A stretch of DNA of 32,000 nt from the NCBI GenBank assembly GCA_030167145.1, contig CP126532.1:3810001-3842000 (forward strand), in the 5' to 3' direction. The notes beneath the pieces were generated by a model that saw nothing but the letters and a program-made list of their open reading frames with translations, ran no database searches and was not told the DNA's origin. Positions 3,703-24,297 of the stretch are shown in pieces. Within the stretch, counting starts at the first letter, position 1; every line of letters starts with the position of its first letter. The DNA is from Ktedonobacterales bacterium (GTDB lineage Bacteria > Chloroflexota > Ktedonobacteria > Ktedonobacterales > JADMIN01). Both the position numbers and the translations under genes were made by a program.

Positions 3703-4428
3703 TCACGGCTGAGCAATATAGACGAATTCGCGGCCTGGGCGGTCAGGTGCGCCGCGCATCGCTTCCACCGTGAGTTGGGCACGGGACAGCGCGTCGGTTA
3801 TCTCTGGCTGGGTACGGAACCGTAGGGTTGAATCGGACGTCAGTGTCCTTCCGTTCTTTTGGAAGACGAATACGTGGCGGAACGAGACCAGTGGCATCTG
3901 CACACCCACCAGCTCCACCCAGGACTCAATCCTGCCGACATCGGGCGCTTCGATCACCTGGTAGGAGTTCTCTCTATTCCAATCTTTCCACGCCTCCTTT
4001 GCGGGGTCGCGCGTCTCAAAGACAAGGCGTCCGCCTGGAGTAAGGGCCGCACGGCAGGCACGAAGCGTGACCACCCACTCCGCATCTGTTATGAACACTT
4101 GCGCCACATTGGCAGTCATTGTGATGAGGTCGGCCTGCAATCCTTGCATTTGTTCGGCTGAGCCAGTAATCCAACGCACATGGTCAGCGTAGGCTTTCCG
4201 TTGCGCAACCGCCAACGAAGCGGCCGCCGGATCGATCCCTATGACCTCTTTCCCTAGTGCCGCTAACCGACAGGCAAGGACGCCAGTTCCGCAGCCGAGG
4301 TCAATGACGGAGTGAGCGTTGAACTCGTCTACCATCGCGACATAAGGCGTTAGGTCTGGCCGTTCAGGGCTGTCGAGCAGGTCATAGATTTCAGCCAGTT
4401 CTGGGGTGGCGAATAGCGCGTCAGGCAT
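3703..4428 (-). CDS. Class I SAM-dependent methyltransferase
   Basis: 241 aa. Motif I VIDLGCGTGVLACRLA, followed by the acidic-loop GIDP. More A/T-ending codons than the flanking housekeeping genes (by eye). Confidence 0.85.
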   Translation of the reverse strand: MPDALFATPELAEIYDLLDSPERPDLTPYVAMVDEFNAHSVIDLGCGTGVLACRLAALGKEVIGIDPAAASLAVAQRKAYADHVRWITGSAEQMQGLQADLITMTANVAQVFITDAEWVVTLRACRAALTPGGRLVFETRDPAKEAWKDWNRENSYQVIEAPDVGRIESWVELVGVQMPLVSFRHVFVFQKNGRTLTSDSTLRFRTQPEITDALSRAQLTVEAMRGAPDRPGREFVYIAQP

Positions 4429-4446
4429 TAAGGAAAACCCTCTTTC

Positions 4447-4473
4447 ACTTGAATCTGGTTATCCCGACCTATC
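4447..4473 (+). repeat. Degenerate copy A of the tRNA-Pro 3' end (T-loop to acceptor)
   Basis: ACTTGAATCTGGTTATCCCGACCTATC. 16/21 identical to tRNA-Pro 3452-3472 and 21/27 identical to copy B at 5484-5510. Same orientation as the tRNA. Confidence 0.5.
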
Positions 4474-4528
4474 AGACACATCATCATCCCTTCGCGCCAA
4501 GGAGGTCTCTGGCAATCTGGCGGCGCGC

Positions 4529-4891
4529 TCATGCCTCTGAGCCAAAGCGCTGCTCTAACCATGCAACGGCAAACCCGGTGAGGCCCGCCGCGTCAAACAA
4601 GTAGGAAGAGGCGTTCCCGACCTGGCCGTGCGCGCCTCCGCCCGCTGCCAAGTACGCCTGCGCGATTTCCTCGAAGCTGTAGGCATCGTGGGCTTCGCTC
4701 GTGTTGTAGTCTTCGACATCAATCCAGATCGTCTGCCCGTCTTGCAGGACTGGACATTGATAGTGTATGACCGCCTTGTGCCGTAACTGGGCAAGGTATT
4801 CCGCGTGGTGCAGTAGCGTAATGGTACCAAGCGGCGCGCCCAGCATGAGTACTTGTCCTTGCCAGGCAAAGAATGTGGCCAAGGGACTCCG
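4529..4891 (-). pseudogene. Truncated aminoglycoside 3-N-acetyltransferase (AAC(3)/Antibiotic_NAT family); C-terminal ~45% only
   Basis: SPLATFFAWQGQVLMLGAPLGTITLLHHAEY...SSYLFDAAGLTGFAVAWLEQRFG aligns colinearly with the C-terminal half of AAC(3)-II type enzymes as I recall them (...GKALLLGAPLNSVTALHYAE...CYLFDAQDIVTFGVTYLEKHFG). The ~150 N-terminal residues are missing. The track's 'M' is a TTG at 4882, and similarity stops about 35 nt from the stop codon of the upstream ABM gene. Confidence 0.75.
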
Positions 4892-4924
4892 AAGCTGTAG
4901 CCGTAGTCTCGGGGATGGCGCCGC

Positions 4925-5224
4925 TCACGAGGCGACCACCACCGGCCCATCGTAGGTGTGGAGCGAGAGATGTTCCATGATCCCACTGCTCTGCATCCAC
5001 TCCCGATATCGCTGAGCGCCCGCCCGACCGAGATCCTCCGATTCCCACTCAGCCACCGCGACAGTGGTGCGCGCATCGGCCCGCATCAGCCGATAGCGGA
5101 TGAAGCCGGGCTGCTGGCGGAAGACCGTCAGTCCTCCCTCTTCAATCCGGCGAATCAAATCCTGCCCCACAGCGGATGTCAGGTCGATGTCCCAGTTGGC
5201 TATGGTGGAGCGGAGATAGGTCAT
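4925..5224 (-). CDS. ABM (antibiotic-biosynthesis-monooxygenase-like) ferredoxin-fold protein, ~100 aa
   Basis: Internal ATG at 5224 is preceded by AGGAGGG. MTYLRSTIANW...FRQQPGFIRYRLMRADARTTVAVAEWESEDLGRAGAQRYREWM fits the ABM pattern (pGf..y.l...d....v.v..Wes.e). Confidence 0.6.
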   Translation of the reverse strand: MTYLRSTIANWDIDLTSAVGQDLIRRIEEGGLTVFRQQPGFIRYRLMRADARTTVAVAEWESEDLGRAGAQRYREWMQSSGIMEHLSLHTYDGPVVVAS

Positions 5225-10621: not shown

Positions 10622-11992
10622 CTAGCCGTTGACGGCGGCAATCTCGGAGGCGGGGGCGAGCGGCAGAGCGGGCGCGATGATATGTGCGGCGCTGTCCGCG
10701 GCGAGCAGCACACCAAAGCGCCAGATAAAGAGGCCCATCTTGCCGCCTTCGTGCGCGAGCAATTGCAGCGCGCACCCCGCCAGCCCCGCATCGTGGGGCA
10801 CAGCGATGCTCCCGTTCACCTGTTGCGCCAGCGGTTGCAGCATGCTCTGCCCCTCGTCGCAGACACGCCATTGCAGTTCGTCGGCGAGCGTCTGGCCGAA
10901 CGCTAGCGGTATCGGCGGCTGCGGTATGCTCCAACCCGTCGTATCGCTGTACGTCAGGAAGAACTGCGCAGGCTCCGGCGTGGCCAGTACCCCGGAGTAG
11001 ACCTGAGAACCCACCCCAGAGGTGAATCGCCAACGCAGCGAGACGGGCATGAAGACCGACCAGATACGCGCAGTGCTGGGTAGGTCGGTATTGATGTCGA
11101 GTCCAGCCGGGCAGAGGCTTCCCGCGACACAATCACCAGCGGCGGCGCTGGCCGGACTAAAGAGCAGGTCCGCCACGAGCGGAGCGGAGGCGATGGCGGC
11201 GGTAATCTGGCCCTGGCTGTCATAGCCGGTGGCGTAATACTGGCCCGGCGGAACCGTCGTCGTCAGTGCCACGCCGTTGATGGCGCGCGATGCGGCGTCA
11301 TTGGCGCTCGCCTGGAGGTCAGGCGGCATGTCAGTGGCGCGCAGCGGGATATAGAGCGTGAAGAGCGCCAGCACCGCCTTGCCTTGGATGGCATAGAGCG
11401 ATCCGGCATGTCCGGCCTGGCAATCGCCGGTAATATGCTGCTCCGGCCACGCCATATGGCAGGCATGTGGCGCAAACGGCGGCGCTGTGAGGGTGATCGC
11501 ATTGTCGCCCTGGATCGGCGTGAAGACGAAAGGCGGCGGACCGGCGAGCGCGTGGCCGTTGACACTCGCCGAGCCGTAGGAGGCATTGCTGACAATGACG
11601 ACGGGTCCGTGCAGCGGTGGCGCCGCAATTGCTGGCACATCCGTCATCGCGCTGGATTGCGCCACCTGATAGGCGATGAGACGGTGAAGAATACCAAGCG
11701 CCATGAAGATGATAATCGCCACACCGAATAGGTTCCAGATGCGTTGGCGGTTCGTGCGCCGTGGCCGCAACAGATCGTTCAGGTTGTCTGGTGGGGCATC
11801 TTCCTGGTCTGTGGGGATAGGGGCGAGCGGGTGTTGCGGCTCTGGGCGCATGTGCGGCGGTGGCCGGTATAGCGTGCGATAGCCCAGCAGCGCGCGCCCA
11901 TAGTAGCCCGCTCGCAACGGGGGCAGAGCCTCGCTGGATGGGGCAGCGCGCTCGCGTTCGCGCTGGATGTCATCGGGTGGCTGCTGGGACAT
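10622..11992 (-). CDS. Uncharacterised single-pass membrane protein, paralogue 1 (disordered N-terminus, TM, Cys-conserved ectodomain)
   Basis: ORF 10622..12064. Start placed at ATG 11992 (MSQQPPDD...), preceded by GAGGAAA and a promoter. TM helix IWNLFGVAIIIFMALGILHRLIA after an Arg-rich segment. Colinear similarity to the next gene: VSN.SYG..(S/T)VN...L, GDNAITL.A.PF.PH.CH..WPE, GLFIWRFGVLLAAD.A.H. Confidence 0.7.
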   Translation of the reverse strand: MSQQPPDDIQRERERAAPSSEALPPLRAGYYGRALLGYRTLYRPPPHMRPEPQHPLAPIPTDQEDAPPDNLNDLLRPRRTNRQRIWNLFGVAIIIFMALGILHRLIAYQVAQSSAMTDVPAIAAPPLHGPVVIVSNASYGSASVNGHALAGPPPFVFTPIQGDNAITLTAPPFAPHACHMAWPEQHITGDCQAGHAGSLYAIQGKAVLALFTLYIPLRATDMPPDLQASANDAASRAINGVALTTTVPPGQYYATGYDSQGQITAAIASAPLVADLLFSPASAAAGDCVAGSLCPAGLDINTDLPSTARIWSVFMPVSLRWRFTSGVGSQVYSGVLATPEPAQFFLTYSDTTGWSIPQPPIPLAFGQTLADELQWRVCDEGQSMLQPLAQQVNGSIAVPHDAGLAGCALQLLAHEGGKMGLFIWRFGVLLAADSAAHIIAPALPLAPASEIAAVNG

Positions 11993-12035
11993 TGCGGCTT
12001 TCCTCGCCACGTGCGACGCCCAATGGTTGTATGGA

Positions 12036-12064
12036 AGCATAGCAAAGTGCGACGGACTTCGCAA
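12036..12064 (-). promoter_or_regulatory. Putative sigma70-type promoter for paralogue 1 (TTGCGA-N17-TATGCT)
   Basis: On the minus strand, TTGCGA (12064-12059), a 17-nt spacer, then TATGCT (12041-12036), ~45 nt upstream of ATG 11992. Confidence 0.4.
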
Positions 12065-12131: not shown

Positions 12132-13403
12132 TCAGGGTGGCGGAAGCTGGCTGGCGGTCGTGGCGGCGATGACCTCGGCAGGCGGCGCGAGTGGGACATC
12201 GGGAAATGTCGCATGGGTCGCGGCATCGGCGGCGAGCAGCACGCCAAAGCGCCAGATGAAGAGTCCCGCGCGCGTGCCGCTATTGGGCTGCAACAGTTCG
12301 AGTTGACATCCAGCCAGCCCGTTATCCTGCACCCAGTTGATGGTTGCCGCGCTATTCCTTTGCCGCTCATCGGCGAGGTTAGCGAGCGTTAGTGCGCCCA
12401 CGCCACAGATGCTCGCCGTAAGCTGCTGGGTTAGTGGCTGTCCGCCAATGAACTGCTCCGCGTGACGCAGAACCTGCCAGCCAGAGGCGCTGGTATAGGC
12501 GAGCACTAGCTCAACCTGAAATTGTGAGAGCAGGGGAGGAAGCGTGGTCGGGATTCCCGCGGCAGATGTGAACTGCCAGGAGACGGTGACGGGCGTGAAG
12601 ACCGCCCAGGCGCGCACAGCGGGATGCGCTTCCGTCGCCGCCGGATTGAGCGCGCCCGCACAGAGAAGCTGGCTATCGCAGTAGGCAGGCTGCCTGGTCC
12701 CGGATGCGGGCAGCGCGAAGTGGACCACGGCGTTGAGCGGTGCGGGGGCAGGCTGGCTGAGGATGTTGCCCGTAGAGTCGCGCCCGATAGGATAGTACTG
12801 GCCGGCGGGCACGCTGGTCTGCGGCTGCACGGCGTCTAGCGCCTGGGCAATGGCGCTGAGTGCGCCTATGCGGAGGTCAGGCGCAAGATCAGCGGCGGTG
12901 ATGCGCAGATAGATGACCAGATTCGCGACGACAAAGTGGTCCGCGATGGGAAAGACGCCGCCACTGCCAGAGCCGCACGTGCTGGATACAACGCCCTCCG
13001 GCCAGCGTACATGGCAGGTATGGGGCAGAAACGGCGCGGCGCTGAGCGTGATGGCATTGTCGCCCTGGCGTAACGCGATCACCTGCGGCAGCGGCGCGGT
13101 AAGCGGTTGGGCGTTGACGGTGACAGCGCCATACGAGAGATTGCTGACGAGCACGATAGAGGCAGCAGTAGTGAGCGAAGGTGCGCGCGAGGTTTGGGAT
13201 GGCAGCGAAGAAATGGAGCGCAGAATGAGACCTGCGACCACAAGCAGCAGTACGACTACCATACCCATCCGCAGCGCACGGCGGCCCACGGAGACGCGGC
13301 GCAGCAGCAGGTGGTCGAGATCCACGGTGCGCGGCGTAGGATCGGCATCGTCAGCGTGGTTTTCGTTGTCGGCGCGCCCGTGGTCATCTGCTGGCTGTCG
13401 CAT
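12132..13403 (-). CDS. Uncharacterised single-pass membrane protein, paralogue 2
   Basis: 423 aa. Acidic/His-rich N-terminus, then the TM helix LRMGMVVVLLLVVAGLILRSI after RRVSVGRRA. Its ectodomain shares the motif set and six Cys positions with 10622..11992. Confidence 0.7.
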   Translation of the reverse strand: MRQPADDHGRADNENHADDADPTPRTVDLDHLLLRRVSVGRRALRMGMVVVLLLVVAGLILRSISSLPSQTSRAPSLTTAASIVLVSNLSYGAVTVNAQPLTAPLPQVIALRQGDNAITLSAAPFLPHTCHVRWPEGVVSSTCGSGSGGVFPIADHFVVANLVIYLRITAADLAPDLRIGALSAIAQALDAVQPQTSVPAGQYYPIGRDSTGNILSQPAPAPLNAVVHFALPASGTRQPAYCDSQLLCAGALNPAATEAHPAVRAWAVFTPVTVSWQFTSAAGIPTTLPPLLSQFQVELVLAYTSASGWQVLRHAEQFIGGQPLTQQLTASICGVGALTLANLADERQRNSAATINWVQDNGLAGCQLELLQPNSGTRAGLFIWRFGVLLAADAATHATFPDVPLAPPAEVIAATTASQLPPP

Positions 13404-15582: not shown

Positions 15583-17055
15583 ATGGCGCGGGACGGTGGC
15601 GCTGATCTCTGGCCCAAAAGATGCTCTAAAGCGGGTATGCGCATTGATTATGACAAACGGCAACCCGTCTACCGGAGTATGCCCCAGAGCTTCGCGGGAC
15701 AACTGATCGCCCGGCTCGGCCAGCTACGCGCCCAGGCCAGCGGGGGGCAGAATCAGACGCGCCAGCCGTATACGCGCGGTGGGGTGGGGTTTGGGCCGCC
15801 GTCCTGGCTGCAAACGGCGCGGCGCTGGTCGCCGGGCATCGTGCCGCCGATGCTGGGTGGGCTGCTGTTGCTGGTGGGGGTCGTACTGGCCACACAACGC
15901 GGCACGCAGCGCCCGCTGATCGCGCCGCACTCACTGTTGCCGCTCTTCCTCATCTATTTGATCTTTGGGACCATCTACGGCCTGGCGCTGCACTTCGCGC
16001 CGACGACCTATGCCTGGCTGGGGGTGCTGGCTGGCGGCGCGCTGGTCTACGTCGCGGTGACACTCTGGGTAATCGGCGGCGTGGCGCCGCTGGCGATCTT
16101 TCTGATCGTGCTGCTCATCGTGGCATACGTCTATGTACGCACCCACATGCGAACCGTGGCGAAGAATCAGGTGATTGTTACGGAGCTTGCTGGCGGGCAT
16201 TCACGCACACTGGGCACGGGCGCGCACGTGTTGCTTCCGGGCGAGCAGGTGCTGGCGACCGTGGAGATTGGTGAGCGCCAGCTTGCCGTGCCCGCGCAAC
16301 AGGTGGAGCTTGCCGATGCGAGCGGCGAGCCGTATGTGGCGCAGGCGGCGGCGCTATTGGCATTTGTGATTCAGCCGGATCAGGCGCATCTGGTGGCGCT
16401 GGGGCCAGAGGAGTGGGAAGACGAGCTGCGCGAGCGGGCAAGCGCGGCGCTGCGGCGCAGTTTGGCGGAGTGGGGCAGACGCATGCTGACGGATGACGAG
16501 GAGCTGCCCGAAGGCATGATGGCGAAGACGGCGCTGCGGCTGCTCTCGGATCGTATGCGGCCACGCGGCCTGCGTATTCGCTGGATGCGCGTGCGCGACA
16601 TCTGGCTGCGGCCAGCAGGTGAGGTGGTTCCGGTGGATGACTGGGAGCACGAGCAGCAGCCGCCCGCAGAGCAACGCCCGTGGACGCCGCCCGCCGCTCC
16701 TGCGCCACCCGCGCCGTATGTCGCGCCACACGCAGACCCACCGCCGCTGTACCCACCGCGCGGAGAGATACGCGCACCGATGCGCGGACCCGCACCGCGC
16801 CCCGCGCTGCCGCAACCGGCACATGAGCCAGATGTGGCCGACGAGGCGTTCCCACCGGAGGCGCTGCGCGATGCGTATGAGGCGGTGCGAGCGAATCAGA
16901 TCACCGATCCCCAGACGATTCGCGAGATCGCGCAGGGTTTTCTGCATGTAGCGCACAATCCGGCGCTGGCCGAGACGCTGACCTTCGACGCGGGAGCCGC
17001 CGCGCGCATTTTGCTGGATCGCGCGGCGGCAATTGAGCAGCAGTCGCCACATTAA
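15583..17055 (+). CDS. Polytopic membrane protein (4 predicted TM) with a tentative SPFH/band-7-like domain and a Pro-rich region
   Basis: ORF 15280..17055. The first ~100 codons overlap the opposite-strand small gene, so the start is taken at ATG 15583 (ATG 15637 is also possible). There are four hydrophobic helices. After them, VAKNQVIVTELAGGHSRTLGTGAHVLLPGEQVLATVEIGERQ...RGLRIRWMRVRDIWLRP follows the SPFH beta-alpha pattern only loosely. A PPAAPAPPAPY-type tract follows. Confidence 0.6.
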   Translation: MARDGGADLWPKRCSKAGMRIDYDKRQPVYRSMPQSFAGQLIARLGQLRAQASGGQNQTRQPYTRGGVGFGPPSWLQTARRWSPGIVPPMLGGLLLLVGVVLATQRGTQRPLIAPHSLLPLFLIYLIFGTIYGLALHFAPTTYAWLGVLAGGALVYVAVTLWVIGGVAPLAIFLIVLLIVAYVYVRTHMRTVAKNQVIVTELAGGHSRTLGTGAHVLLPGEQVLATVEIGERQLAVPAQQVELADASGEPYVAQAAALLAFVIQPDQAHLVALGPEEWEDELRERASAALRRSLAEWGRRMLTDDEELPEGMMAKTALRLLSDRMRPRGLRIRWMRVRDIWLRPAGEVVPVDDWEHEQQPPAEQRPWTPPAAPAPPAPYVAPHADPPPLYPPRGEIRAPMRGPAPRPALPQPAHEPDVADEAFPPEALRDAYEAVRANQITDPQTIREIAQGFLHVAHNPALAETLTFDAGAAARILLDRAAAIEQQSPH

Positions 17056-17213: not shown

Positions 17214-17288
17214 GCCCCCATAGCTCAGCGGATAGAGCACCGGCCTCCGGAGCCGGGTGCGGGCGTTCGAGTCGCCCTGGGGGCACCA
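17214..17288 (+). tRNA. tRNA-Arg (anticodon CCG), CCA encoded
   Basis: Acceptor GCCCCCA/TGGGGGC, D-arm AGCTCAGCGGATAGAGC, anticodon stem CCGGC/GCCGG with loop CTCCGGA (CCG), T-arm GGGCG-TTCGAGT-CGCCC, then A and CCA. Confidence 0.93.
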
Positions 17289-17290
17289 CA

Positions 17291-17324
17291 AGCAGGCACC
17301 CTCGTGTGGGGCCTGCTCTTTTTT
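17291..17324 (+). terminator. Rho-independent terminator after tRNA-Arg
   Basis: Stem AGCAGGC(a)CCC / GGGGCCTGCT with a 6-nt loop, followed by a run of six T (17319-17324). Confidence 0.7.
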
Positions 17325-17379
17325 GACTTGCAAAGTCCTTCTCTACTCGTTCTCAGCTCGCTCTCATCGTGCCGTCCCC

Positions 17380-17408
17380 TTGCGCGATGCCACCCCTTCC
17401 GCTATCCT
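17380..17408 (+). promoter_or_regulatory. Possible promoter of the TIR gene pair (TTGCGC-N17-TATCCT)
   Basis: TTGCGC at 17380-17385, a 17-nt spacer, TATCCT at 17403-17408, ~65 nt upstream of ATG 17474. Confidence 0.3.
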
Positions 17409-17473
17409 GGGCGCGGAGGTGTCGTGCCCGCCGTGGATTCGCGGTCGGCGTAGGATGCGAGATGGAGTCGAGG

Positions 17474-18673
17474 ATGCCGGGGAACGGGAAGGTATTTGTT
17501 TGCCACGCGCACGCGGATAATGCACTTTGCGCCCCATTGCTCGCCGCGTTACAAGCATGGGGCGTGGACTACTGGTTTGATGCCGCCGCGATGGAGGCGG
17601 GCGCGGACCTCACGATGCGCATCCAGCAGGCCATCGCGGAGCGCGACATCTTCATCCGCGTCTGCACGAACGCCGCACAGCAATCGTATTGGGCGCGGAT
17701 TGAGACGAGCGCCTTCCGAGGCTTGCAGGCGCAGGCCCATCGTGGTGGAGAGGATGGCCGCCGTGTGCTCATCAACCTCATCCTCGACCCAGACTACCAG
17801 CGCGAGCCATTCGACCTGGTGGCCATCTTCATAGACGCCACACACCAGCCACTATCCGCCTGGCTCGATGCGTTGCGGCGAGCATTGGGCCTGCCTATCC
17901 CGAATGCACCTGTTGGATCGGCTTGGCCCCAGGAAGCAGCCTCCCCCACGGCGCCGCCCACTGTCAGCGCGTCGCCCGCCACAACGCCACACAAGTCGCG
18001 GCCCGTACGCCGTCGCGGCTCGCACAGCCGCGCTGCCATCCCGGCGGCGGTCGCGTTCGCCATCATCGTCGCGTTCACTGGGCTGCTCCTAAGCCAAACG
18101 GGCAAACCATTGCGAAGCGGCCACCTCCAGCCCAGCCCCACCGCGACCTGGACCTTGCCGCCAGCGCCAACCGCTACCCAGACACTGGTTCTCACTCCCG
18201 CCGGGCAAACAGCGGGGCCAGGGCCGCAACAATACACCTTCGCCGACGCCCACATTTCGATCCGCATTCCGCTGGATTGGGGCACCCCAAACGATGAGGG
18301 TCTTTGTTCGGCTTGCCATGCCGTTGTGATCAACGTGCCAGGACCATCGAACGCCTTCGCCACCATCGAATTGCTCACCGACCAGTGGGCCAGCGCATCC
18401 GACCCGCAGGTGGTGAACAATGCCGACGGCTGGTTTCTGGTGCAGGGCGGCGTCACTGAGCGAAGCCGCACGACAGTGACGGTCGGCGGCGAATCCTGTG
18501 TGCGCGGCGAGTTCACCTTCGCCACCAATGGTAACAACGTTACCTCCTGGCTGTTCGGCTGCCACCACGCGAATCATGAGTACATGCTGTATTTCTATGC
18601 GCTTTCATCCAAGTGGGCGGCCCAATCCAAAGGCGATATCGCCAGCATGGTCAATTCCATTCATTGGCTGTAG
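17474..18673 (+). CDS. TIR-domain membrane protein A (N-terminal TIR, 1 TM, PT-rich linker, C-terminal ectodomain)
   Basis: ORF 17369..18673. Start placed at ATG 17474 (MPGNGKVFVCHAHADN...), after GGAG and at the same start as the paralogue. TIR_2-like pattern: KVFVCHAHAD..., WFD...M..G.DL...I..AI.ERDIF, SYWARIE. TM helix AAIPAAVAFAIIVAFTGLLL follows RPVRRRGSHSR. Confidence 0.8.
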   Translation: MPGNGKVFVCHAHADNALCAPLLAALQAWGVDYWFDAAAMEAGADLTMRIQQAIAERDIFIRVCTNAAQQSYWARIETSAFRGLQAQAHRGGEDGRRVLINLILDPDYQREPFDLVAIFIDATHQPLSAWLDALRRALGLPIPNAPVGSAWPQEAASPTAPPTVSASPATTPHKSRPVRRRGSHSRAAIPAAVAFAIIVAFTGLLLSQTGKPLRSGHLQPSPTATWTLPPAPTATQTLVLTPAGQTAGPGPQQYTFADAHISIRIPLDWGTPNDEGLCSACHAVVINVPGPSNAFATIELLTDQWASASDPQVVNNADGWFLVQGGVTERSRTTVTVGGESCVRGEFTFATNGNNVTSWLFGCHHANHEYMLYFYALSSKWAAQSKGDIASMVNSIHWL

Positions 18674-18723
18674 GCGGGTCAGCGTGACACACCCACCCAG
18701 CACCATCTTGCGGGAGTATTGCT

Positions 18724-19833
18724 ATGCCGGGCAATGGGAAGCTATTCGTCAGCCACGCCAGCGCGGACATTCCGCGCTGCCAGCCATTGCTCGCGCTGTT
18801 GCAGGTGTGGGGTGTGGATTTCTGGTTCGACGCCCAGCAAATGAGCGCGGGGGAAGATCTCACCCAACGCATCCAGGCTGCCATCCGCGAGCGTGACATC
18901 TTTGTCCGCATCTGCACCCCCGCCGCGCAGCAGTCGTACTGGGTCCATCTCGAAGCCAGCGCCGCTCGTGGGCTGGCCGCGGCCAGCCCGCCGGGGCAGC
19001 GCACGTTCATCAATCTGATCCTGGATGCCGCGTACCAGCCTGAGCCATTCGATCACGGCAGCGTCGTCATAGATATGGTGCGCCAGCCCAAGGAAACGTG
19101 GCAGCGTGAACTGCGCCATGCGCTTGGTGTGCCGGAGTCTGCCCGGCAGCATGCGCCCAAAGAACGGAAAGCACGGCCAGCATGGCCCCGGACGCCCCCC
19201 TCCGCTCCAAAGCGGGCCGCGCTCGTGCCGCTGATCGCGCTCGTCTTGCTGATTGCGGTTGCGGGTGTGGCCTTCGCGTCGGGGGGCGCGCCGCTCGCGT
19301 TCTTTGCGCGTGCGACCCCCACACAACCCCTCACTGCTACTCTGTCGCCGACGTCTTCCCCCACTGCCTCGCCCACGCCGCTGCTGCCCGCCACGTTAGC
19401 CAGCACGGCCACGCGGGGCCCGTTCGGCCTCTTCACCATACGCTTCCCCGCCAGGTGGAACGTTGTCAATCCGGGGGCGCAGAGCTATGGCATGGAAGCG
19501 TCAGGGAACTACGCCTCTATGGACTTCAGCCTCGCCGACCCCAACCATGCGGACTGGTCGAATGATCAGTGGCTTGCTTTCATGTTGGAAAATGTAGCGC
19601 ATACCGCCTTCACTAAAGGCACGCGAACCATTGGCGGCATCCCCTGGGCCTGCTATAGCTTTCAAGAGCAGCTCTTTCCCAACGATCCTTCGACTATTGA
19701 AGGCGAGGCGATTTGCTTTGGACGCCGCAACGGCAACACCTACATCATTCAGCTTGAGGCCAGCGCCCCTGATTTCCATGCTGCCGACGTGATGTATTTC
19801 ACGCCGTCGCTGCGAACGTTCGCATTCACCTAA
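18724..19833 (+). CDS. TIR-domain membrane protein B (paralogue of A with a divergent ectodomain)
   Basis: 369 aa. MPGNGKLFVSHASADIPRCQPLLALLQVWGVDFWFDAQQMSAGEDLTQRIQAAIRERDIFVRICTPAAQQSYWVHLE. TM helix ALVPLIALVLLIAVAGVAFA follows KERKARP...PKR, then an STP-rich linker. GGGAG RBS; 50-bp gap from gene A. Confidence 0.8.
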   Translation: MPGNGKLFVSHASADIPRCQPLLALLQVWGVDFWFDAQQMSAGEDLTQRIQAAIRERDIFVRICTPAAQQSYWVHLEASAARGLAAASPPGQRTFINLILDAAYQPEPFDHGSVVIDMVRQPKETWQRELRHALGVPESARQHAPKERKARPAWPRTPPSAPKRAALVPLIALVLLIAVAGVAFASGGAPLAFFARATPTQPLTATLSPTSSPTASPTPLLPATLASTATRGPFGLFTIRFPARWNVVNPGAQSYGMEASGNYASMDFSLADPNHADWSNDQWLAFMLENVAHTAFTKGTRTIGGIPWACYSFQEQLFPNDPSTIEGEAICFGRRNGNTYIIQLEASAPDFHAADVMYFTPSLRTFAFT

Positions 19834-22605: not shown

Positions 22606-24297
22606 GTGCCCAAGATCGAGATTCGCGGTGAGCAATTTGCGGCAGGAGATCTCTTCGGTGACAAGTTTGCCTTCTCTATCCCCCCGTATCAGCGCCCCTA
22701 TGTTTGGACCACCGAACATGCTGGTGAACTACTCGACGACCTGCTAGGGTCGCTTGGGGAGAGCGGCGAGGCAGTGGAAGAGCTAAGTCCGTACTTCCTC
22801 GGCAGTATCGTGCTTACCAAAGGCGACCGGCCAAACGCCCAGATTGTGGATGGACAGCAGCGCCTCATCACTCTTACCATCCTCCTCGCCGTGCTGCGCG
22901 CCCTCGTGCCAGAGCGTTACACTGAAAGCGTCACTCGGCGGCTGTACGAGCCAGCCGATCCGCTCAACAATATCCCCGCCCGCTTCCGGCTCCAGCCCAA
23001 GGAGCGTGACATTGGATTCTTCCAGGAATACATTCAGAGCGAGGGCGGCGTGGAGCGCCTACGCGGGCAGATACAGGGTGATCTGCCTGATAGCCAGCGC
23101 AACATGCGCGATAACGCGCTGCTCTACCTGCGCCAGCTTTCCAGTGTTCCGGAAGCCCAGCGTATTCGCCTCGCGCAGTTCGTCATTCAGCGGTGCCTGC
23201 TCGTTGTCGTTTCCACACCCGACCTTGATTCGGCGTACCGCATATTCTCGATTCTCAATGACCGCGGCCTGGATCTCTCCTACGCCGATATCCTGAAAGC
23301 GGAGATTATCGGCCGGATTCCGGAGCCAGAGCAGACTGAGTATACGGCCCGCTGGGAGCAGTTGGAAGAGTCACTGGGTCGCAAGGGCTTTGAGGAACTG
23401 TTTGGCCATGTTCGCGCCATCTATACCAAAGGATGGATTAGAGGCACTGTGCTCGACGGATTTCGCAAGCGTGTCATGGAGCCGTTAGGCGATCCCCAAA
23501 AGCTGATAGATGAGGTGCTGGCGCCCTTGGGCAATGCCTACTATGTGGTGCAAGGCGCTCGCTATGAGCACACCAATGGCGCTGACCAAATCAATATGCT
23601 CCTACGCTGGCTCCAACGTATTGACAATCACGATTGGCTGGCGCCAGCCGTGCTGTATCTTTCGCGCTACCACGACGCGCCTGATCGGTTGGCGCGCTTC
23701 TTCAGTGAGTTGGAGCGGCTTGCGGCCTCGATGATGTTGCGCCGTCAATACGGCGACAAGCGCGCACAACGCTACGCCCGCCTGCTGCGCGCTATCGAGA
23801 ACGGCGACAATCTGTCGCAACCCACCTCGCCAATTCAGCTCAGCCACGAGGAGTGTGAGGCAACTATCGGCGCGCTGAGTGGCGATGTGTATCTAATGCC
23901 CCCTACCGCTCGCAACTACCTGCTGCTGCGCTTGGATAGCTTTCTCGCGGCTAGTCTTGACCCTGGCTATGCGTATGGTACTCTCACTGTGGAGCACGTG
24001 CTGCCGCGCACTCCCAAAGCCAACAGCGATTGGGTGCGGTGGTTCCCAAATGCGCGTGAGCGGGCTACCTATGTGCATCGTTTGGGCAATCTTGTCCTGC
24101 TTTCTCGCGCCAAGAATGCCCAGGCGTCGAACTACGACTTCGACCACAAGAAAACCATCTACTTTGCGGGCGCGAACGGCGTTTCGCCCTACGCGCTGAC
24201 CACACAGGTGCTACGCGAGCACGAGTGGACGCCGCAGGTGATCGAACGCCGCCAGCAGGAATTGCTGCAATCGCTGAAGACGATGTGGCGGTTGTAG
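22606..24297 (+). CDS. GmrSD-family DUF262/DUF1524 protein (type IV, modification-dependent restriction-like)
   Basis: 563 aa with a GTG start after GAAGGAAGG. N-terminal DUF262 motifs FSIPPYQRPYVW and IVDGQQRLITL. C-terminal DUF1524 His-Me finger: TVEHVLPR...HRLGNLVLLSRAKNAQASNYDF. Confidence 0.85.
   Translation: MPKIEIRGEQFAAGDLFGDKFAFSIPPYQRPYVWTTEHAGELLDDLLGSLGESGEAVEELSPYFLGSIVLTKGDRPNAQIVDGQQRLITLTILLAVLRALVPERYTESVTRRLYEPADPLNNIPARFRLQPKERDIGFFQEYIQSEGGVERLRGQIQGDLPDSQRNMRDNALLYLRQLSSVPEAQRIRLAQFVIQRCLLVVVSTPDLDSAYRIFSILNDRGLDLSYADILKAEIIGRIPEPEQTEYTARWEQLEESLGRKGFEELFGHVRAIYTKGWIRGTVLDGFRKRVMEPLGDPQKLIDEVLAPLGNAYYVVQGARYEHTNGADQINMLLRWLQRIDNHDWLAPAVLYLSRYHDAPDRLARFFSELERLAASMMLRRQYGDKRAQRYARLLRAIENGDNLSQPTSPIQLSHEECEATIGALSGDVYLMPPTARNYLLLRLDSFLAASLDPGYAYGTLTVEHVLPRTPKANSDWVRWFPNARERATYVHRLGNLVLLSRAKNAQASNYDFDHKKTIYFAGANGVSPYALTTQVLREHEWTPQVIERRQQELLQSLKTMWRL

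Follow-up and report, generated by a model that had tools for sequence, protein, structure and literature searches.

A conserved Ktedonobacterales gene pair predicted to link TIR domains to PsbP-like domains across the membrane

Bacterial TIR domains have so far been understood as cytoplasmic enzymes reacting to internal signals. Could some of them instead be wired through the membrane to a binding domain on its outer side? The question is raised by two adjacent genes, here called A and B, on a 5.07-Mb contig of the metagenome-assembled genome of an uncultured soil member of the Ktedonobacterales (Chloroflexota). We analyzed a 32-kb stretch of this genome, referred to below as the window, and all coordinates are positions within it unless a different locus is named. 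The same region appears in Joint Genome Institute (JGI) record 3300045419 as Ga0494333_323, at roughly 3.80–3.83 Mb, and carries NCBI locus tags of the series OJF49_; the product of gene B is identical to P0065, locus tag OJF49_003674. Each protein is predicted to consist of an N-terminal TIR domain, one transmembrane helix, a linker and a PsbP-like ectodomain. The reading that we prefer, and to which we give an even chance, is that A and B are paired type-II receptors in which the ectodomain controls the clustering of the TIR domains and their NADase activity.

Domain architecture of the two proteins

The initial annotation described two co-directional genes of one architecture, 50 bp apart, and open reading frames (ORFs) with this arrangement were found on the forward strand (Table 1). 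The products of A and B matched the Pfam TIR_2 model (PF13676; gathering score 28 bits) with 54.4 bits (E 2.3e-14, residues 7–123) and 61 bits (E 2e-16, residues 8–128), respectively. A profile of 19 TIRs of the family matched solved TIRs, with E values of 4e-8 for the NAD+ hydrolase AbTIR, 3e-6 for BtpA and 4e-6 for the TIR-APAZ protein of SPARTA, the last over the whole domain. In an AlphaFold2 (AF2) model of full-length B, the predicted local distance difference test score (pLDDT) of residues 1–135 was 86–97, except for the block 41–50 at 72, and Foldseek matched the modeled TIR to SPARTA (8oz6_A, root mean square deviation 3.3 Å over 142 columns), to the SARM1 TIR (9mw2_A, TMt 0.74) and to TIR-1. 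The model is that of B, to whose TIR the TIR of A is 62% identical over 131 residues. Pfam, the family profile and the model of B thus agree on the TIR_2-like domain that had been placed at residues ~1–135, and the common N terminus reported for it, MPGNGK[VL]FV.HA.AD, is present in both proteins.

The residues expected of an enzymatic TIR are in place. Glu77, for which codons 17702–17704 in A and 18952–18954 in B had been given, lies within S-Y-W-x3-E in both proteins. In HMMER alignments, W73 and E77 stand opposite the Trp and Glu of AbTIR (kkdWtnyE) and of BtpA/TcpB, in agreement with the proposal that Glu77 occupies the position of the catalytic Glu of NADase TIRs. We take the aligned AbTIR residues to be W204 and the catalytic E208, with W638 and E642 as their equivalents in SARM1. 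All 19 sequences of the family alignment (A4) have W73 and E77, and the motif [SP][YF]Wx3E is kept in ~80 of the 97 family members. By sequence and predicted fold, the TIRs of A and B are probably of the enzymatic (NADase) type.

An Arg/Lys-rich segment and a single hydrophobic helix were said to follow the TIR, and such a helix was found at residues 188–206 of A and 166–184 of B. The 15 residues before the helix contain more Lys and Arg than the 15 after it (six against two in A, four against one in B), which is consistent with an N-in, C-out orientation. Neither protein has an N-terminal signal sequence, as both open with the beta-A strand of the TIR. With hydropathy, charge bias and the AF2 helix in agreement, the placement of the TIR inside and of the C-terminal domain outside holds as a prediction, and A and B are predicted to be single-pass type-II proteins with a cytoplasmic TIR and an extracytoplasmic C-terminal domain. 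Behind the helix, both proteins have a linker of 35–45 residues consisting to 47–54% of Pro, Thr and Ser, which is disordered in the AF2 model of B. Such a linker had been annotated together with a C-terminal domain of ~170 aa; the linker stands, whereas the folded domain is smaller, at ~150 aa.

The C-terminal halves of A and B had no Pfam match at E ≤ 1, and their assignment comes from structure. The ectodomain of A was modeled with a 36-sequence alignment, and a Foldseek search of the model against the PDB returned PsbP and CyanoP (E 2e-7, TMq up to 0.71), with EagT6/DUF1795, LpqN, Apa, MTC28 and DcrB among the other matches; all 33 PDB matches at E ≤ 1e-3 were PsbP-type folds or proteins grouped with them. 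The ectodomain of B gave the same picture, with PsbP 4rth_B at E 4.8e-7 and TMt 0.63. A PsbP/DUF1795-like domain had been guessed before, and the model with a pLDDT of 92 and its top Foldseek matches (PsbP, EagT6, LpqN and DcrB) bear the guess out. Both C-terminal domains are PsbP-like in the models, and this fold serves in varied ways to bind proteins, peptides and lipids.

Sequence comparison extended this picture. Aligning nine family members revealed a common ectodomain skeleton, and the profile built on this alignment reached PsbP among the PDB sequences at E 1.4 only. An exhaustive HMMER search with the profile (E ≤ 1e-3) was needed, a word-indexed search having given one protein, and it found 411 representative proteins with gene B as the top scorer at 170 bits. 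Among the 84 relatives scanned, 41 matched Pfam PsbP (best E 2e-9) and 5 matched PsbP_2 (best E 3.5e-17). The domain is C-terminal in all relatives inspected (~140 of the best 150) and in most of them is preceded by one hydrophobic helix, the exceptions being mostly short and fragment-like. The N termini vary, usually comprising a zinc ribbon and a disordered region, and in other cases a TIR or a Ser/Thr kinase; the kinase is represented by P0176, in which the same PsbP-like ectodomain stands behind a Pkinase domain. The main carriers of the ectodomain (P0100–P0242) are type-II proteins with an N-terminal zinc ribbon, a long disordered region, a transmembrane helix and the PsbP-like domain. 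In P0168, P0178 and P0201, it follows an alpha/beta-looking N-terminal domain of ~110 residues that has no Pfam match and shows the pattern ..SAIIAAP..LAEALAA.LRNLGW.VVVTDQ.GPY..

Conservation of the pair and of its TIR subfamily

To place A and B relative to each other and to their orthologues, we compared the proteins domain by domain. BLASTP aligned A and B over 282 aa at 42% identity (E 1e-54), covering the TIR, the transmembrane segment and the linker but not the ectodomain. An identity of ~70% had been estimated by eye over the first ~85 TIR residues; the measured value is roughly 66–72% over the first 60–85. The ectodomains, earlier called barely alignable, gave no pairwise alignment at all and show 15–20% identity in the family alignment. 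Between orthologues, the TIR and the ectodomain are 70 and 53% identical for A and P0003 and 80 and 59.5% identical for B and P0056, and the corresponding values for B and P0064 are 72 and 39%. The excess of TIR over ectodomain identity in these three orthologue pairs fits the earlier view of a conserved signaling end and a diverged outer end. The further idea of a hypervariable ectodomain was not upheld, as the A-type and B-type ectodomains are old, stable paralogue types, each retaining 53–60% identity in orthologues.

The arrangement of the genes is conserved as well. An A-type gene followed after ~50 bp by a B-type gene recurs at loci L003–L006, L002 and L029, that is, in at least three other assemblies; in L003–L006, the pair is formed by P0003 and a 370-aa TIR protein, and L026 holds a further TIR–transmembrane pair with the same spacing. 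Since identity between orthologues exceeds that between A and B, the duplication is older than the species splits, and both copies have been kept together with their order. The L026 pair is flanked on both sides (429–1400 and 4236–5168 of that locus) by paralogous, lipoprotein-like secreted proteins of 323 and 310 aa, which are 41% identical, have lipobox-like LLSAC/LLAAC motifs and match no Pfam family.

Across four lineages, the only element common to the A–B spacers is a purine run resembling a Shine–Dalgarno (SD) sequence. Gene B has an SD-like GGGAG 9 nt 5' of its ATG, and gene A has GGAG 6 nt 5' of its own. Gene B was thought to have its own ribosome-binding site and no visible promoter; the GGGAG is present, and the consensus scan showed no promoter. 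The same scan found no terminator-like site in the spacer and, for both genes, no promoter or terminator beyond chance, including no sigma-70-like site, although it is uninformative for this organism. A spacer of ~50 bp with an SD sequence alone would fit co-transcription of A and B and a joint function. The start of gene A at 17474 is backed by the family-wide N terminus M.GNGKVFISHA and by the upstream GGAG. The JGI call of the gene (L022 8814; 378 aa) begins 21 codons later, which is too late, as the first TIR beta-strand (beta-A) would be lost. This late public start may explain why the exact 399-aa protein is recorded only from a Logan contig.

The TIR of A and B belongs to a wider group of sequences. 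Its relatives are 50–70% identical, and those with a named source come only from Ktedonobacterales or Chloroflexota assemblies; a word-indexed search with the TIR profile gave mostly fragments and short proteins and extended neither the set of architectures nor the taxonomic range beyond the Ktedonobacterales. The same TIR occurs with the PsbP-like domain behind a strong transmembrane helix, with a PQQ beta-propeller behind a weaker, Ala-rich membrane segment and, in proteins with no transmembrane helix, with a right-handed beta-helix, an FGE-sulfatase domain (lectin-like 'FGS'), VWA, FHA or NUDIX. Three members (P0026, P0046 and P0078) have the reverse order, which is that of Toll-like receptors, of signal peptide, outer domain, transmembrane helix and C-terminal TIR with an intact SYWxxxE. 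Judged by sequence, this Ktedonobacterales subfamily is one of a constant TIR joined to exchangeable, sensor-like modules on both sides of the membrane. In L002, a TIR-FGE_sulfatase gene (1849–2943 of that locus, reverse strand; FGE-sulfatase E 4.9e-43, TIR_2 E 1.2e-12) is convergent to the A-type/B-type pair, so different members of the subfamily cluster.

The TIR-PQQ genes form conserved tandem triplets (L012/L023 6001–11000, L013–L016 and also L018, L019 and L020). The first gene of L012 (L012_1) is 53–61% identical to its counterparts in first position at L013 and L014, and identity between positions is 35–43%; two genomes have recF upstream, and two have GT2 and UbiA genes downstream. The positional orthology and the kept neighbors indicate that the triplet locus is stable on the chromosome. 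An SMC_N/AAA_23 gene beside a triplet was considered as a defense ATPase and turned out to be RecF (TIGR00611, 296 bits). At residues ~140–175, the triplet proteins of L012–L016 carry a twin-arginine-like vSRRxxLGlGaa before the membrane segment, and P0176, the relative with the kinase domain, shares this twin-arginine-like motif (GISRRTIVLGLG). This suggests that the PQQ proteins have an internal Tat-type signal anchor by which the folded propeller would be exported while the TIR, folded as well, remains cytoplasmic. The SRRxxLG of these sister proteins prompted us to consider Tat export for A and B too, and the idea was rejected, as neither has the motif. In four triplet genes (L012 gene 3, L013 gene 3, L016 gene 1 and L015 gene 1), the active-site Trp and/or Glu is lost; the degenerate motifs are SFWMSMA, SYSMSLD, SVAMNLQ and SLGVNME, and the neighboring genes retain the active-site residues. 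The pattern suggests that the triplets mix catalytic and noncatalytic subunits.

Candidate mechanism, rival explanations and known systems

Under the paired-receptor reading, A and B would be co-expressed and act jointly, possibly as a heteromer. Their PsbP-like domains would bind an envelope-derived or foreign ligand, or respond to a changed state of the envelope, and the two proteins would then cluster differently in the membrane. This could bring the TIRs together head to tail, completing their active site and switching on NAD+ cleavage. The outcome would be NAD+ depletion and/or an ADP-ribose (ADPR)-derived nucleotide, and the loss of NAD+ or the ADPR-derived product would halt the growth of the affected cell compartment or kill it. 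The physiological role might be surveillance for invaders or of the envelope, or a developmental cell-fate decision in filamentous bacteria. We infer this course by analogy with SARM1, SPARTA, TIR-SAVED and TIR-STING, in which sensor-driven oligomerization activates the TIR. A separate effector would not be required, as the TIR itself would be the output, as in sensor–TIR fusions. The lack of a known partner effector had been presented as a puzzle and is no anomaly, since the TIR is the effector itself in SPARTA (TIR-APAZ), TIR-SAVED, TIR-STING, SARM1 and single-protein E. coli TIR systems (PMC11350192).

A bolder version, which we find possible yet doubtful, holds A and B to be genuine outside-in TIR receptors and an independently evolved counterpart of Toll-like receptors, with fixed heteromers gating the TIR NADase and deciding the fate of single cells in a multicellular Ktedonobacterales filament. 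In detail, and as tentatively, the PsbP-like domain or the propeller of the sister proteins would detect a cue from the envelope or from outside the cell, and the receptors would be built as pairs and as PQQ triplets, some of the latter with catalytically dead subunits. If receptors of this kind exist, the TIR proteins of bacteria include some whose TIR is connected across the membrane to a binding domain outside, and it can be tested whether a TIR NADase is gated from outside and with what ligands. The subfamily provides a natural swap experiment, with one TIR joined to PsbP-like, propeller, beta-helix, lectin-like, VWA, FHA and NUDIX partners in both orientations. It could help to explain how sensors control TIR assembly and may be relevant to how multicellular Chloroflexota control cell fate.

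Several observations weigh against the paired-receptor reading. The conserved Glu is required for NADase activity yet not sufficient for it, and PsbP-like domains also serve as structural or chaperone-type modules. A heteromer of A and B is suggested only by their conserved adjacency. The matches to TIR models of PADLOC and NCBIfam are weak and partial, at 26–30 bits; those of PADLOC are to generic TIR models (ThsB, SAVED-TIR, Aga-TIR, RT-TIR and PDC-S66), all at ≤30 bits. The genes lie in a housekeeping context with stable synteny, and the sister PQQ triplets adjoin recF in two genomes, which makes a typical mobile anti-phage cassette somewhat less likely. Finally, no experimental precedent for outside-in activation of a bacterial TIR was found in the literature searched.

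The most serious rival places the trigger inside the cell. The transmembrane helix and the PsbP-like domain would merely anchor the TIR, for instance to the wall or S-layer, and the signal would be cytoplasmic, such as a phage protein or a nucleotide. This has in its favor that the subfamily members with no transmembrane helix (fusions to beta-helix, FGE-sulfatase, FHA, VWA and NUDIX) must sense in the cytoplasm, that E. coli TIR systems detect phage components intracellularly (PMC11350192) and that the Foldseek matches include the envelope-associated or envelope-binding LpqN, Apa and DcrB. We consider it unlikely, as an ectodomain that changes faster than the TIR and falls into distinct, conserved paired types is more typical of a specificity module than of a passive anchor, and its occurrence on a Ser/Thr kinase is a receptor-like layout. 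Quite unlikely, in our judgment, is that the TIRs act as nonenzymatic scaffolds, serving like those of Toll-like and interleukin-1 (IL-1) receptors as homotypic interaction modules that recruit other TIR proteins with no cleavage of NAD+. The genome and its relatives do encode many paralogous TIR proteins able to interact, and the loss of the Trp/Glu motif in members of the PQQ triplets (L012_3, L013_3 and L016_1) implies that noncatalytic TIRs exist. A and B, however, keep the W73 and E77 that are invariant in the core family alignment, their closest solved relatives (AbTIR, BtpA, SPARTA and SARM1) are active enzymes, and no adaptor-like partner gene is linked to them.

Two further explanations differ in what the TIR would produce. 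In a Thoeris-like arrangement, A and B would make an ADPR-derived messenger for an effector (ThsA-like, SLOG, Macro or SIR2) whose gene is not linked to them and lies at another place in the genome. Known Thoeris systems are operonic, whereas no SIR2, SLOG, Macro or ThsA gene was found among the genes of the 32-kb window, as had been stated before, or beside the related loci examined. In favor of the idea, the PADLOC ThsB models gave weak partial matches of up to 29 bits that cover residues ~4–80. Beside this weak similarity of the TIR to ThsB models, A and B differ from Thoeris (ThsA + ThsB) by their transmembrane helix and ectodomain, by the absence of a ThsA gene and by not lying in a defense island; we do not count A and B as members of Thoeris, and the messenger route appears very unlikely to us even though TIR domains are known to produce signaling nucleotides (PMC7159879). 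The remaining alternative, that A and B are ordinary envelope or housekeeping proteins with a TIR-like domain in a metabolic role, such as local turnover of NAD or nucleotides at the membrane, would suit the housekeeping neighborhood, the lack of an atypical composition and a family in which synteny is stable and orthologues keep their positions. We regard it as highly improbable, since a lineage-restricted, strongly modular family with sensor-type partners does not have the pattern of a core metabolic enzyme.

The preferred reading of A and B as paired receptors has its closest parallel in the soluble sensor–TIR effectors. SPARTA, TIR-SAVED, TIR-STING, SARM1 and the single-protein TIR systems of E. 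coli likewise combine a catalytic W-x3-E TIR and a sensor-type domain in one polypeptide, the nearest to the TIRs of A and B being SPARTA and SARM1 by structure and AbTIR by sequence. These effectors sense cytoplasmic signals, whereas the sensor of A and B is PsbP-like, predicted to be outside and present as a conserved paralogue pair. The initial annotation held that characterized TIR systems rely on soluble TIRs. This does not apply to E. coli, in which both single-protein TIR defense systems and TIR systems with transmembrane segments protect from phages (PMC11350192); these E. coli systems sense phage components inside the cell (PMC11350192).

A layout like that of a Toll-like receptor in reverse order was also proposed. 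As an analogy between layouts this stands, and it goes no further. Toll-like and IL-1 receptors share with the predicted form of A and B a single membrane pass, with a binding domain on the outer side and the TIR in the cytoplasm. They are type I, with a signal peptide, a leucine-rich repeat or immunoglobulin ectodomain and a C-terminal TIR, whereas in A and B the order is reversed and the ectodomain PsbP-like. A and B keep the enzymatic Glu, their TIRs resemble those of the NADase type, adaptor proteins are absent, and nothing points to common descent with the Toll-like receptor architecture.

Fusions of a TIR to a lectin-like sensor such as FGS are a known theme in multicellular bacteria (PMC8195603, PMC7159879). 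The TIR-FGS and TIR-NPCBM fusions (Kaur, Burroughs, Iyer, Aravind, eLife 2020/2021) are related to the present case in that a TIR-FGE_sulfatase of the A/B subfamily adjoins the pair in L002. In the published descriptions, these fusions are cytoplasmic and are usually accompanied by STAND, vWA-MoxR or EAD components; the sensor of A and B is predicted to be extracytoplasmic, with none of these components linked. On the side of the ectodomain, the fold is common to PsbP, CyanoP, DcrB, LpqN and DUF1795 (EagT6), and relatives found with the profile match PsbP and PsbP_2. Those proteins occur free, as lipoproteins or as chaperones, whereas the domain in A and B is tethered by a transmembrane helix to a TIR and has no direct Pfam match. 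The receptor Ser/Thr kinases of Actinobacteria and Chloroflexi have the type-II layout in common with A and B, and P0176 has the same ectodomain; their output is a kinase, that of A and B a TIR. The literature searched contained no account of a TIR–transmembrane–PsbP-like architecture, of membrane-spanning versions of it or of Ktedonobacterales TIR receptors. Our best guess is that A and B function as sensor–TIR fusions do, with the membrane between sensor and TIR.

Genomic setting

The features of the locus are collected in Table 1. The tRNA-Arg(CCG) that was said to lie directly 5' of the pair was confirmed, ending 186 bp upstream of gene A. It is followed by a terminator-like hairpin, so gene A must have its own promoter, somewhere in 17326–17473. 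The tRNA was considered as an integration site and rejected, as no tRNA was found beside the family at the ten other loci examined (the L003 contigs end where the tRNA would be), there is no integrase and composition does not shift.

Table 1. Coordinates of genes A and B, their predicted domains and adjacent features in the window
Feature	Position	Strand	Basis or detail
tRNA-Arg, anticodon CCG; upstream context, outside the system	17214..17288	+	ARAGORN
Terminator-like hairpin and U-run after the tRNA	17291..17325	+	RNA fold -19.4 kcal/mol, z -3.15, then UCUUUUUUG
Gene A, A-type: TIR_2, predicted transmembrane helix, Pro/Thr/Ser linker, PsbP-like ectodomain	17474..18673	+	399 aa
Gene A TIR domain, residues 1-135	17474..17878	+	Pfam TIR_2, E 2.3e-14; family profile matches
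Gene A codons Trp73-Glu77, putative active-site W-x3-E	17690..17704	+	alignment with AbTIR, BtpA/TcpB
Gene A predicted transmembrane helix, residues 188-206, after RPVRRRGSHSR	18035..18091	+	Kyte-Doolittle 2.47
Gene A Pro/Thr/Ser-rich linker	18092..18205	+	47% Pro/Thr/Ser
Gene A PsbP-like domain (modeled), residues 245-399, fold from ~252	18206..18670	+	AF2 pLDDT 92.1, predicted template-modeling score (pTM) 0.85
A-B spacer, 50 bp, with SD-like GGGAG of gene B	18674..18723	+	sequence inspection, terminator scan
Gene B, B-type: TIR_2, predicted transmembrane helix, Pro/Thr/Ser linker, PsbP-like ectodomain	18724..19833	+	369 aa
Gene B TIR domain, residues 1-135	18724..19128	+	Pfam TIR_2, E 2e-16; AF2 and Foldseek
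Gene B codons Trp73-Glu77	18940..18954	+	family alignment
Gene B predicted transmembrane helix, residues 166-184	19219..19275	+	Kyte-Doolittle 2.87; AF2 helix at 167-185
Gene B PsbP-like domain (modeled), residues 228-369	19405..19830	+	AF2 pLDDT 80-96; Foldseek
GmrSD homologue (DUF262/DUF1524)	22606..24297	+	Pfam GmrSD_N/C; PADLOC 'Orf5' E 1e-183

The GmrSD gene, for which a distance of 2.8 kb had been given, starts 2.77 kb after the end of gene B, between the gene of a phosphonate-binding protein and fabH, and is the sole defense-type gene in the 32 kb. The remaining genes with a family match have housekeeping, membrane or transport functions and encode methionyl-tRNA formyltransferase (fmt), dihydroorotate dehydrogenase (pyrD), OMP decarboxylase (pyrF), pantoate ligase (panC), FabH, peptidyl-prolyl isomerases, glycosyltransferases, an MFS transporter, DedA, TerC and the phosphonate-binding protein; several ORFs have no family match. 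The GC content at the pair is 0.62–0.65, like that of the flanks, and other loci of the family adjoin hemC/hemD or recF. We therefore rejected a defense island or mobile cargo, at which the initial annotation had hinted, as the neighbors are housekeeping genes except for the one GmrSD, the composition is not atypical and no tRNA accompanies the ten other loci.

Two neighbors of the locus deserve mention in their own right. Directly upstream of the tRNA-Arg, at 15637–17055 on the forward strand, lies a gene for a 472-aa protein with multiple transmembrane segments, a Pro-rich C-terminal tail and a weak SPFH/Band_7 match (E 0.002). Farther upstream, two adjacent large ORFs on the reverse strand (10622–12064 and 12132–13403) encode 480 and 423 aa (456 and 423 aa in the JGI record); they have no Pfam, PADLOC or NCBIfam match, and the stretch around them has a markedly positive GC skew of 0.12–0.18.

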